Shown here: positions 3,390-7,827 of the stretch, in pieces | Layout: every line of letters starts with the position of its first letter | Numbering within the stretch: the stretch's first letter is position 1 | IMG/VR virus record: IMGVR_UViG_2558860274_000010 | Span: 1-15,352 of that record | From: a virus | Lineage: Duplodnaviria; Heunggongvirae; Uroviricota; Caudoviricetes | DNA: 15,352 nt | Strand: one strand, 5' to 3' | Made by a program: the position numbers and the translations under genes | Notes under the pieces: model-generated | What the model saw: the letters and a program-made list of their open reading frames with translations, nothing else | Databases searched by the model: none | What the model was told of the DNA's origin: nothing

Positions 3390-3465
3390 GGCCCTTTAGC
3401 TCAGTGGTGAGAGCGAGCGACTCATAATCGCCAGGTCGCTGGTTCAAATCCAGCAAGGGCCACCA
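3390..3465 (+). tRNA. ileZ: tRNA with anticodon CAT (Ile2/lysidine type or Met; ileZ-like)
   Basis: Manual cloverleaf: acceptor GGCCCTT/AAGGGCC, D-arm GCTC/GAGC, anticodon loop CTCATAA, T-arm GCTGG-TTCAAAT-CCAGC, encoded CCA at 3463-3465. Confidence 0.85.
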
Positions 3466-3472
3466 TCACATA

Positions 3473-3549
3473 CCGCCATTAGCTCATCGGCAGAGAGCGT
3501 CAGCTTTCGAAACTGGCTGTGTGGGGCCCGGGTCCCCGATGGCAATCCA
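3473..3549 (+). tRNA. argN: atypical tRNA-Arg-like, anticodon TCG (argN-like)
   Basis: Manual fold: D-arm GCTC/GAGC, anticodon loop TTTCGAA with U33 and A37, encoded CCA at 3547-3549. Irregularities: two C-A mismatches at the acceptor end, one mismatch closing the anticodon stem, and a non-canonical T-loop CCCGGGT. Confidence 0.5.
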
Positions 3550-3562
3550 TTATCTGCATTAT

Positions 3563-3639
3563 GCGTTGTTAGCTCAGCCGGACAGAGCAATTGCCTTCTA
3601 AGCAATCGGTCACTGGTTCGAATCCAGTACAACGCGCCA
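3563..3639 (+). tRNA. argO: tRNA-Arg, anticodon TCT (argO-like)
   Basis: Manual cloverleaf: perfect acceptor GCGTTGT/ACAACGC, anticodon stem ATTGC/GCAAT with loop CTTCTAA, T-arm with TTCGAAT loop, encoded CCA at 3637-3639. Confidence 0.85.
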
Positions 3640-4103: not shown

Positions 4104-4494
4104 ATACATATCTGGATTATCACCTGTTACGGTAAAAAGTGATTGCTTACTGTTTTTGTGAATGGCATTGCAGCAGCCGGATAATGTCAGTGCTGGCTGA
4201 CGGTGTGCTGGTGGCGGGTGTGGTGGTTGTTGCTTTCCCGTTGCTGAAAAAGAAAACGCCAGACTGTTAGCCGGGTATCAGTTAGCGGGAGAAATTTTTA
4301 AATACTTCACAATTCAGGCGGTTGACTGTTGTCTGGTTTGCGGGGAGTTTGTTAAAAGAAACTGGCATGGTGAATCCCCCTGTGCGGTGGGGCAATCAGC
4401 GAGTAGGTATATGGGATAATCGCGGATTCAGGTGCTGGTACTGAATTCACCGGGAGGCACCCGGCACCATGCAATGGCACATAGCGCCACTCTC

Positions 4495-4524
4495 CAGCCC
4501 CTCTCCGGAGGGGCTGTTTATATT
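4495..4524 (+). terminator. intrinsic terminator-like hairpin
   Basis: 9-bp stem CAGCCCCTC/GAGGGGCTG with loop TCCG, followed by a T-rich tract (TTTATATTGATTTT) on the + strand. Lies immediately 3' of the stop of the minus-strand ORF 4518..4886. Confidence 0.4.
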
Positions 4525-4886
4525 GATTTTGTCAGATGTGAGTAAACTCCTGATGGACTTTGTTGTTTTAGTCCATAAGGACATATTTGCAGAGTGCAAC
4601 GGTTATTAAAGCATTCATTCAATACGTTATCTGTATTTGTAGGGCATTCCTGGCTGTTTTTGATTAAATTCCAGAATGTTTTATTGAATGGTACTACGTT
4701 GTAAATGGTTACAGGTAGCACTTTGTTATTGAGCATGATGCCTGTGTGAGTCAGTGTAAATATACTTTCAGGAGGTAAGAAAGCATCCGATTGATACCAG
4801 ATTATTAATTTTATTTTACTCCATATGACTGAAAAAGATATTCCGCATGATGGCTGGATAACTGTATCAATCACAATCCACTTCAT
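4518..4886 (-). CDS. hypothetical protein (122 aa), AT-rich cargo gene
   Basis: Minus-strand ORF with a good ribosome-binding site (AAGGAAAGTAA then ATG). Low GC compared with the flanks; no recognisable family or signal peptide. Confidence 0.4.
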
Positions 4887-5186
4887 TTACTTTCCTTGTT
4901 TATGCCTTGCTGGTGATGTTCTGAAAAGTATAAATGATATTTTTGAATTAAACCATAGAGCAGAATTATTTTTCTGATGTTGTTTATTGTTTATTTAAAT
5001 ACAGGGTGGTTTATATCTCGTCTTGTAGTTTATCCATGCATATCTGCTTGATAATCAGGTTTTTATTTAAGGTATGGTTTTGTGTTTTTTCTGTATAGAC
5101 TGGCCCCCTGAATCTCCAGACAACCAATATCACTTAAATAAGTGATAGTCTTAATACTAGTTTTTAGACTAGTCATTGGAGAACAG

Positions 5187-5552
5187 ATGATTGATGTCTT
5201 AGGGCCGGAGAAACGCAGACGGCGTACCACACAGGAAAAGATCGCAATTATTCAGCAGAGCTTTGAACCGGGGATGACGGTCTCCCTCGTTGCCCGGCAA
5301 CATGGTGTAGCAGCCAGCCAGTTATTTCTCTGGCGTAAGCAATACCAGGAAGGAAGTCTTACTGCTGTCGCCGCCGGAGAACAGGTTGTTCCTGCCTCTG
5401 AACTTGCTGCCGCCATGAAGCAGATTAAAGAACTCCAGCGCCTGCTCGGCAAGAAAACGATGGAAAATGAACTCCTCAAAGAAGCCGTTGAATATGGACG
5501 GGCAAAAAAGTGGATAGCGCACGCGCCCTTATTGCCCGGGGATGGGGAGTAA
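5187..5552 (+). CDS. insC: IS2 transposase OrfA (InsC)
   Basis: 121 aa beginning [21 protein letters not shown]..., preceded by GGAGAACAG. Matches IS2 InsC as recalled. Confidence 0.85.
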
Positions 5553-5722
5553 GCTTAGTCAGCCGTTGTCTCCGGGTGTCGCGTGCGCAGTTGCACGTCA
5601 TTCTCAGACGAACCGATGACTGGATGGATGGCCGCCGCAGTCGTCACACTGATGATACGGATGTGCTTCTCCGTATACACCATGTTATCGGAGAGCTGCC
5701 CACGTATGGTTATCGTCGGGTA
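5510..5722 (+). pseudogene. insD: IS2 orfB (insD) 5' fragment, truncated after codon 71
   Basis: [30 protein letters not shown]...PTYGYRRV matches the InsD N-terminus. The expected continuation is replaced from 5723 by unrelated sequence in the same frame. Confidence 0.7.
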
Positions 5723-6919
5723 CAGAAGAACCCGAAAAATGTGTTGCTGGCGGTGTGCTGGATGCAGGGAGAGTTTGACATGAGCGCCGCCACCCACGCA
5801 CAGCAACCTGCGCTGTTTACAGCCATGCTGACACAGTTTCGTGCTGACCTCTCCGTGTTTAACGCGCAGTGCCATGGTGGCAGTGCTGCAGATGTGCCGT
5901 GGATTTGTGGTGACACGACGTATTACTGGAAAAATACATACGCTACCCAGTACGACACCGTGTACGGCGGGTATAAAAACAGGGAGAGTGAGGGCGTTTA
6001 TTTTGTGCCCTTCATGACAGACGGTAACGGCGTCAATACCGCCACTAACGCGCCGGCAGAAGATCCGGATATTCCGGCATCAGGATATTACGGTGCGGCA
6101 TCGAGAACGAATGGAAACCAGGTATCATCAAACCGCCCGACACATTTCAGTTCATGGGCGCGCAGGAGCATTATTCCGGATCGTCTGGCAACCGCTATTC
6201 TGAACGCAGCCGGGCGCACCTCAGCCTTCATCAGTGGTAAGGCACCGGAAATCAAACCCTCGCCCGGCGGCAACACGCCATCGGGTCCGTCTGCAGATAC
6301 GTCCGTTCGCACAATCTCCCTGCTGCCGGCAGCCGGAGAGGCTGCTGCGCAGGGCTGGAGCATTAAGGATGGCGGAATTCAGTTGTCAGATGGTGTATTT
6401 AAGATCACCAAGCAGAGCAATAAAACCTGGTCCCTGACGCATCCGGTGGATGACGCAATTACCCTGCTGACACAGGGCGGCAGACTGACCTGTAAGTTCC
6501 GCCTGTCAGGCGCACTGACCAACAATCAGTTCGGGCTGGGGATTTATCTGTATACGGATGCTCCCGTTCCTGATGGTGTGGCGATGACGGGTACCGGTAA
6601 TCCGTTCCTGATGTCGTACTTCACTCAGACCACTGACGGCAGAGTGAATCTGATGCATCACAGGAAAGCCGGAAACACGAAGCTGGGGGAGTTCGGCGAT
6701 TACGGTAACGACTGGCAGACGCTGGAGCTGGTGTTCACCGCCGGCAGTGCCACGGTTACTCCGAAACTGAATGGAGTGGCTGGCCCGGCATTCCAGGTTA
6801 TAAAAGACGGTCTGACACTGGGACTGAATGCGCTGACGCTGACGGATGTTACAAAAAATGCAGCGTATGGCGTTGAGATAGAAAGTCTGGTGCTGGAGAT
6901 AAATGCACCGGCAGCATAA
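5723..6919 (+). pseudogene. 3' portion of a prophage nanS-p/YjhS-family sialate O-acetylesterase gene, 5'-truncated and fused in frame to the IS2 orfB stub
   Basis: Translation from 5723 ([19 protein letters not shown]...[12 protein letters not shown]...YGGYKN...[20 protein letters not shown]...[14 protein letters not shown]) parallels the C-terminal half of E. coli NanS/YjhS as recalled, followed by a ~250-aa extension. The N-terminal part of the gene is absent. The position between the tRNAs and the holin matches where Stx phages carry nanS-p. Confidence 0.6.
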
Positions 6920-7285
6920 TAAAAAAGAGCCAGCGACTGACCTGAAAGAAGACGCTGGCTAAAAGGCCTTATATGTTTGTAGAGACTTATTTTTCACAGA
7001 CAGCAATGATGCCTGTCAATATATTATCAATATGCGGATTGTTTCAGTTACAGATGCTTTATTAAGGAAAAAAACAGCCAGCACTGACTTTCGGTGGAGA
7101 GGTGCTGGCTCAGAAGGATAGTTGGATTTCACATGATACTTATGCCTGGCGGTATATTTTCTGACAGACAGTGACGGGTGTTGTCAAGATATTGTGTCAT
7201 TTATAACCTGAATCAGGGGAGGCCGGAATGTTATCTGGCATTTTTAGCAGAGCCTGAATGCCATAATCACGGCTCCCGGAGTTGG

Positions 7286-7321
7286 CCGTCAGTGGGTGAC
7301 ACTGGCGGTTTTTTTGTTTTT
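7286..7321 (+). terminator. intrinsic terminator upstream of the holin
   Basis: 9-bp stem CCGTCAGTG/CACTGGCGG (one G-U pair) with loop GGTGA, followed by TTTTTTTGTTTTT. Lies 45 nt upstream of the holin start. Confidence 0.5.
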
Positions 7322-7365
7322 CTTTACTTTCATTTTCTGTCGGCGGTGACGGAGACATACATCAG

Positions 7366-7572
7366 ATGGAAAAAATCACAACGGGTGTGTCATACACCAC
7401 GTCAGCGGTGGGGACGGGATACTGGTTACTGCAGCTGCTGGACAAAGTCTCTCCGTCCCAGTGGGTGGCAATCGGTGTGCTGGGGAGTCTGCTGTTTGGC
7501 CTGCTGACGTATCTGACTAACCTTTATTTCAAGATTAAAGAAGATAAGCGTAAGGTGGCGCGGGGAGAGTAG
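7366..7572 (+). CDS. class II holin, phage-21 S21-type pinholin
   Basis: 68-aa ORF closely resembling the phage 21 pinholin as recalled (two TMDs, GYW and [14 protein letters not shown] motifs, C-terminal [13 protein letters not shown]). GGAGA ribosome-binding site upstream. Confidence 0.85.
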
Positions 7573-7827
7573 TCGATGAATAAACAATACGAACTGGTTG
7601 TAAAATGAATATTTCTAACTGAAAAAACGTTCCATGAGGTAAGAAAAGGTCACAGGCAATCAATAACAGGACGTGATGAAAGACCCTTGCATTTGTGCGC
7701 TTTCTCTTTAGATAGCAGCAGATACTGAAAATCTGAGTTGTCGGGGAGTCAGGGATACAGCTGTGCAAGAGTTGGTCATTGTGATTCCATTGAAATCCTG
7801 TATGCCATGAAGGGCAGGATTTTATGG

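Follow-up and report, generated by a model that had tools for sequence, protein, structure and literature searches.

A truncated IS2 joined in frame to the 3' part of a nanS-p esterase gene in a prophage remnant of Escherichia albertii KF1

The fusion and its prophage setting

The window (the whole stretch of DNA that we analysed, 15,352 nt) covers the late-gene region of a lambdoid prophage that lacks stx. The 469-residue product of the open reading frame at 5510–6919 is matched, residue for residue, on the chromosome of Escherichia albertii KF1 (CP007025.1, protein AHE61873.1), and is also encoded on one 3.2-kb metagenome contig from ENA. The window begins with a 5'-truncated DUF968 gene and genes for RusA, a Q-like DUF1133 protein, and a DNA methyltransferase. 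These are followed by tRNA-Ile2, tRNA-Arg, the STnc100 sRNA, an iraM-like gene on the minus strand, and then the IS2::nanS-p fusion. Beyond the fusion are a P21-type holin gene, an ISEc8 insertion, and genes for lysozyme, Rz, and PerC. The window ends with a terS gene that is cut after about 57 codons and with two genes for type III secretion (T3SS) effectors, namely an EspF-repeat (TccP-like) protein and EspJ. The coordinates of the main features are in Table 1.

Table 1. Features of the fusion and its surroundings, with positions in the window
Feature	Position	Strand	Basis or status
tRNA-Ile2 (CAT) and tRNA-Arg(UCU)	3390–3639		
STnc100 sRNA	4336–4525	+	Rfam match, 130 bits, full length
iraM-like anti-adapter gene	4518–4886	-	
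IS2 remnant, nt 1–627 of 1331	5096–5722	+	left inverted repeat, orfA, frameshift window, 5' end of orfB; gap-free alignment
orfA (InsC), 121 aa, intact, HTH DNA-binding protein	5187–5552	+	translation; Pfam HTH_Tnp_1, E = 3e-19
A6G (A AAA AAG) slippery site, intact	5504–5510	+	read directly from the sequence
Chimeric ORF, 469 codons: 71 of IS2 orfB, then esterase codons 219–616	5510–6919	+	deposited as AHE61873.1
Deletion junction, dinucleotide TA common to IS2 nt 626–627 and esterase codon 218	5721–5722	+	four-way alignment, BLAST coordinates
3' remnant of prophage nanS-p (SASA family) esterase gene, residues 219–616 of 616	5723–6919	+	1 mismatch in 1199 nt
Block I, GQSNA (Ser nucleophile, Ser73), residues 71–75 of intact allele			deleted, absent from fusion ORF
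Block II, RGGSAF (oxyanion region), residues 174–179 of intact allele			deleted, absent from fusion ORF
Block III, MQGEFD, residues 232–237 of intact allele, fusion residues 85–90	5762–5779	+	retained; motif mapping
Last block, RPTHFS, residues 356–361 of intact allele (THFS 358–361, His359)	6140–6151 (THFS)	+	retained
DUF6645, C-terminal lectin-like jelly-roll domain, complete	6467–6799	+	Pfam PF20350, E = 3.5e-18
ISEc8, complete	8190–10631		IS66 family, 2442 bp
EspF-repeat (TccP-like) gene	13784–14374	-	
EspJ gene	14699–15352	-	NCBIfam equivalog, 410 bits

The window contains no morphogenesis genes, and between dicB and rusA the extended KF1 locus has genes neither for immunity nor for replication; therefore the prophage is a remnant. 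In the extended locus, dicB is only about 300 bp upstream of rusA, and the ORF at 63–794 of the window covers DUF968 only at profile positions 99–169, the C-terminal part. The early, immunity, and replication region of the KF1 prophage appears to have been deleted too. At the other end (13462–15352), homology of the terminase small-subunit gene to intact prophages stops near 13737, and the EspF-repeat gene lies directly after the cut gene. The whole morphogenesis region is deleted, and the effector cargo is retained. Besides the truncation of the DUF968 gene and of terS, the ISEc8 between the holin and lysozyme genes is a sign of degradation.

Several other features of this region are worth recording. 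The tRNA with anticodon CAT was called tRNA-Met by ARAGORN, and is tRNA-Ile in related E. coli records. The two tRNAs occupy the place of the tRNAs that Stx phages carry immediately upstream of stx; within the window they are not followed by stx genes. STnc100, which has a strong terminator-like hairpin at its end (4495–4516), converges on the iraM-like gene. (The Rfam scan matched only the tRNAs and STnc100, with nothing inside the fusion.) ISEc8 encodes TnpA, TnpB, and a 512-aa transposase, and is flanked by an 8-bp target duplication, GGATATGT, at 8182–8189 and 10632–10639. In E. coli OkiPb01684, ISEc8 has hit this small region independently: it lies in the same spacer, 75 bp further downstream.

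What each partner has kept and lost

An earlier note on this DNA, made from the sequence alone, described the left end of IS2, orfA, and 71 codons of orfB, switching at 5722/5723 to the C-terminal half of a NanS-like esterase with a long extension, in one 469-codon frame. Alignments bear out each part of this description. As a reference for IS2, we used the complete 1331-bp copy in E. coli Ec-2844 (NZ_CM192136.1, locus L002, 6001–7331). The 627 nt at 5096–5722 differ from it at just two positions, 5127 and 5250 (99.7% identity). The left terminal inverted repeat is present: from 5096 on, the window reads TAGACTGGCCCCCTGAATCTCCAGACAACCAATATCACTT... and matches the Ec-2844 copy from its nt 1 onwards, except at 5127. 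(The left-end oligonucleotide of IS2 published in PMC3219604 is identical to the window here, including at 5127.) The left boundary of IS2 is ambiguous by 1 nt (5096 or 5097). OrfA has one conservative difference from the Ec-2844 copy (I22 vs. V). The A6G motif has been described as the site of the programmed -1 frameshift of IS2 (PMC3219604), and a slip at A6G enters the frame of 5510. There, starting from a GTG, 71 codons are identical to the beginning of orfB (InsD).

The rest of IS2 is gone. The orfB part covers only positions 1–72 of the 301 positions in the NCBIfam profile for IS2 TnpB, and scores 153 bits against a cut-off of 597; the catalytic DDE domain (integrase core) is absent. Searches of the whole 15.3-kb window with IS2 nt 628–1331 gave only chance-level matches, and there was no match to the right end of IS2 with three or fewer mismatches. 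So the earlier note was also correct that the right end is missing. The stub lacks the right inverted repeat and the second copy of the 5-bp target duplication as well. Because it has no DDE domain and no right end, the IS2 stub is predicted to be immobile. It should still be able to make OrfA.

The intact reference for the esterase is a 616-aa "SASA family carbohydrate esterase" from E. coli AUSMDU00014361 (locus L001, 6147–7997). The matched part of this gene is 6799–7997. Across the 1199 retained nucleotides, the sole difference is at 6809 of the window, and it gives S581G; the other 397 of 398 residues are identical. The two loci are collinear on both sides, as window 3351–5096 matches L001 4348–6097 and window 5721–8189 matches L001 6799–9268. 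Between these matches, 701 bp of the intact locus (L001 6098–6798) are replaced by the IS2 stub. The lost segment comprises 49 bp of leader, codons 1–217, and the first base of codon 218, and it encodes the DUF1737 domain and SGNH blocks I and II. Neither the 701 bp nor the 217 N-terminal residues have more than chance-level matches anywhere in the window, so the N-terminal part of the esterase, which the earlier note had also reported as missing, has not moved elsewhere within it.

In the intact protein, Pfam identifies three domains: DUF1737 (residues 3–50), SASA (PF03629, residues 66–262, E = 1e-12), and DUF6645 (residues 467–577). The intact allele is similar to the structure of NanS (PDB 3PT5) over residues 59–379 (E = 1.4e-121), and its C-terminal region is similar to PDB 6YP6, "NanS-p", over residues 421–613 (E = 8.8e-30). 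These matches identify the long extension as the known lectin-like DUF6645 domain. Of the three domains, the fusion ORF keeps only DUF6645; DUF1737 is absent, and the SASA family has no match in the fusion ORF at E ≤ 0.01. A role as a carbohydrate-binding module has been proposed for the lectin-like jelly-roll domain of NanS-p (PMC10462455). A 2026 preprint assigned DUF1737 to capsid decoration in phi24B (bioRxiv 10.64898/2026.04.10.717836).

The intact allele has the same domain order, DUF1737-SASA-DUF6645, as NanS (YjhS, 3PT5) and NanS-p of phage phi24B (vb_24B_21/gp84, 6YP6). In contrast, the copy in the window lacks DUF1737 and, together with Ser73, the first half of the catalytic domain. 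The SGNH blocks of 3PT5 are GQSNA at 17–21 (with Ser19 as the nucleophile), RGGSAF at 120–125, MQGEFD at 178–183, and R-x-SHFS with His301 (PMC10792757). All of these could be mapped onto the intact allele, whose last block has the RPTH variant that was noted in PMC10462455. The earlier note had left the catalytic residues to be located: the Ser nucleophile and block II were in the deleted part, while block III and the catalytic His (codon 6143–6145, residue 212 of the fusion) are kept. Mutagenesis has shown that catalysis by NanS needs both Ser and His (summarised in PMC10017367). The remnant is predicted not to be an active esterase: it has no Ser nucleophile, it lacks DUF1737 along with the N-terminal half of the SGNH fold, and block II is lost too, so we would not expect any hydrolysis of O-acetylated sialic acids. 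Judging from its motifs and domains, then, the feature should function neither as an IS2, for want of a DDE domain and a right end, nor as a NanS-family esterase, since blocks I and II and the SASA match are lacking.

Origin of the junction

Similarity to IS2 ends after 5722, and similarity to the esterase begins at 5721. The breakpoint is ambiguous because the two overlap by 2 nt (TA at 5721–5722). After 5722, IS2 would go on with TGGGCGCTG..., but the window has CAGAAGAAC... instead. The IS2 side ends with ...GTCGGGTA and the esterase resumes with TACAGAAG...; TA is the only homology there. The match to E. coli OkiPb01684 also began at 5721, so we considered that this strain might share the breakpoint. 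However, its esterase gene is intact, and the coordinate only reflects how the hit was split.

The junction is present in KF1 and in the independently assembled ENA contig, which extends about 600 nt beyond it into IS2 and 2.6 kb in the other direction; 1 of the 2973 aligned nucleotides differs. The contig ends inside IS2 and ISEc8, as expected for a short-read assembly of the same arrangement. We did not find the junction in 5,426 complete E. coli genomes, in the GTDB species representatives, or in JGI metagenome contigs, and the left IS2 boundary was not present in those E. coli genomes or in the GTDB representatives either. Since it is seen in two independent assemblies, the junction is real, and it is confined to a KF1-like lineage.

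We think that this is very probably a dead junction, left behind when a defective lambdoid prophage of E. albertii KF1 decayed in two steps: the insertion of IS2 and then a deletion of about 1.4 kb. In the first step, IS2 would have inserted 49–50 bp upstream of the start codon of nanS-p, reading in the direction of the late genes. Collinearity with the intact locus extends through the upstream flank up to the left end of IS2, so the left boundary is an ordinary insertion site (with CTGTA as the presumed duplication). In the second step, a single deletion would have joined the ends at the 2-nt TA microhomology. This deletion would have taken 704 bp of IS2 (nt 628–1331), the second 5-bp copy of the target duplication, and 701 bp of flank (the leader and 217 codons). 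The presumed intermediate, a full-length IS2 at 5096 with the CTGTA duplication, was found in none of the 5,426 E. coli genomes or the GTDB representatives, so we only infer the order of events. Because the remnant differs from its intact relatives at 1 of 1199 nt and the IS2 stub at 2 of 627 nt, the event was recent.

The earlier note called this an IS-associated deletion junction, which our results support, with a refinement: it is a deletion at a TA microhomology and not a canonical adjacent deletion. A canonical adjacent deletion made by transposase would have kept the whole IS, but here the breakpoint in IS2 is internal. Recombination between two copies of IS2 can be rejected too, as the whole IS would remain. 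The TA at the junction points to illegitimate or template-switch joining (RecA-independent) rather than cleavage by transposase at the end of the IS, although an overlap of 2 nt is weak evidence for any particular joining mechanism.

We considered whether the join might instead be an artefact of assembly, with the two sequences chimerically joined at a repeated element. IS2 and nanS-p are multi-copy in Escherichia genomes (28,614 matching places), and repeats are prone to misassembly. But the collapse of repeats does not produce joins like this one, which falls within both repeats where they share just 2 nt; and the same junction, with one base different, is in both the finished chromosome CP007025.1 and the separately assembled ENA contig. 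An artefact is scarcely credible. A different question is how a genuine deletion came about. It might be a by-product of the copy-out chemistry of IS2 transposition instead of generic replication slippage: replication would be primed from the flank at the right end, followed by resection and template switching, possibly with help from the IS-excision enhancer. IS3-family elements, including IS2, transpose by copy-out-paste-in. For elements of this type, excision-linked deletions at microhomologies of 2–4 bp have been reported, some of which intrude into the IS, and a preprint connected them with strand switching during replication and with the IS-excision enhancer (bioRxiv 10.1101/2023.06.07.543989). 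The side that was lost from KF1, which is the right (donor) end of IS2 plus the flank, would fit with this. However, nothing in the sequence separates a by-product of copy-out from ordinary RecA-independent illegitimate recombination, and we view the copy-out origin as a possible but rather unlikely one. Either route would leave the same product.

Insertion of IS2 into this spacer is not limited to KF1. In Ec-2844, the full-length IS2 described above lies just after iraM, in the same orientation, with a GTTTC duplication, about 190 bp upstream of the IS2 site in the window. This is an independent insertion, so the spacer between iraM and nanS-p was struck by IS2 at least twice independently.

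The chimeric reading frame and other disrupted nanS-p genes

The codon phase does not change across the junction, and the frame thus continues from codon 71 of orfB (Val) to Gln219 of the esterase. The ORF is open, without secondary mutations, and the upstream signals for translation (the start of orfA and the frameshift site) are intact. We computed that a -1 frameshift of IS2 at A6G would give an alternative product of 577 aa (OrfA-OrfB'-'esterase). That the join is in frame is most likely accidental (a chance of one in three). Any product, whether of 469 or 577 aa, would have half of an SGNH fold attached to an intact lectin-like domain, and would most likely be non-functional.

Could the chimeric ORF nevertheless be expressed and put to use, for instance as a soluble or cell-associated protein that binds sialoglycans with its intact DUF6645? 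The 577-aa form would be an OrfA protein (HTH and coiled coil) with a carbohydrate-binding tail. The frame is open over all 469 codons, the start region of orfB is intact along with the orfA start and the A6G site, DUF6645 is complete, and the fusion was recovered from two independent assemblies. Also, as we read the alignment by the residue numbers in PMC10462455, three of the four aromatic positions that were proposed to bind carbohydrate in the phi24B protein are aromatic here. On the other hand, one in three such joins would be in frame by chance. The event is so recent (a divergence of 1 nt) that the open frame is uninformative about selection. With half of the SGNH fold missing, misfolding and degradation are likely. 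The fusion is limited to one lineage. And the promoter of IS2 is weak and its frameshifting occurs at low frequency (PMC3219604). We therefore consider it highly unlikely that the chimeric protein has been put to use. The more specific proposal, that translation from the orfB GTG or via the -1 frameshift gives a stable protein that uses DUF6645, such as a sialoglycan- or mucin-binding factor tied to the autoregulation of IS2 by OrfA, seems extremely unlikely. If it were true, this would be IS-driven domain shuffling, caught soon after it happened.

Instead, the feature is an ordinary pseudogene junction, and the decay is of the same kind as in the known IS-disrupted nanS-p genes. Pascal et al. 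(2023, PMC10462455) reported IS elements inside nanS-p or a short way upstream of it in Stx as well as non-Stx lambdoid prophages; in some of these cases the protein product is changed. The KF1 gene belongs to this gene family and, like those genes, sits between the Q/tRNA region and the holin gene. The elements in that study were IS629/IS1203 or ISEc8, and the single change to the protein that was described affects the C-terminal end. KF1 differs in that the element is IS2, which is itself truncated; the gene has lost its N-terminal 217 codons; and the prophage, which is without stx, resides in E. albertii. Compared with IS2 (IS3 family), the stub resembles the complete element in its left end, orfA, A6G window, and first 71 codons of orfB, but differs in lacking the DDE domain, the right inverted repeat, and the second copy of the 5-bp target duplication.

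AHE61873.1 is annotated as "putative 9-O-acetyl-N-acetylneuraminate esterase", yet its first 71 residues are from IS2 OrfB and the Ser nucleophile is absent. It should count as a pseudogene when copies of nanS-p are tallied in E. albertii or in STEC-like genomes. As an example of a microhomology deletion in which half of an IS3-family element was lost along with its flank, the junction is clean and recent, and it could be used to mark the lineage of KF1-like E. albertii strains. Beyond the correction of an annotation, its importance is small.

A scan of 4400–7600 for promoters and terminators gave counts near those of shuffled controls, with nothing that bears on the expression of the fusion. 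We did notice two similar GC-rich hairpins downstream of the stop codon of the esterase, at 6925–6960 and 7077–7115 (AGCCAGCG.../AGCCAGCAC...). An A-run precedes each of them, so each reads as a terminator-like site on the minus strand; one of the two was picked up by the scan (6942–6928).
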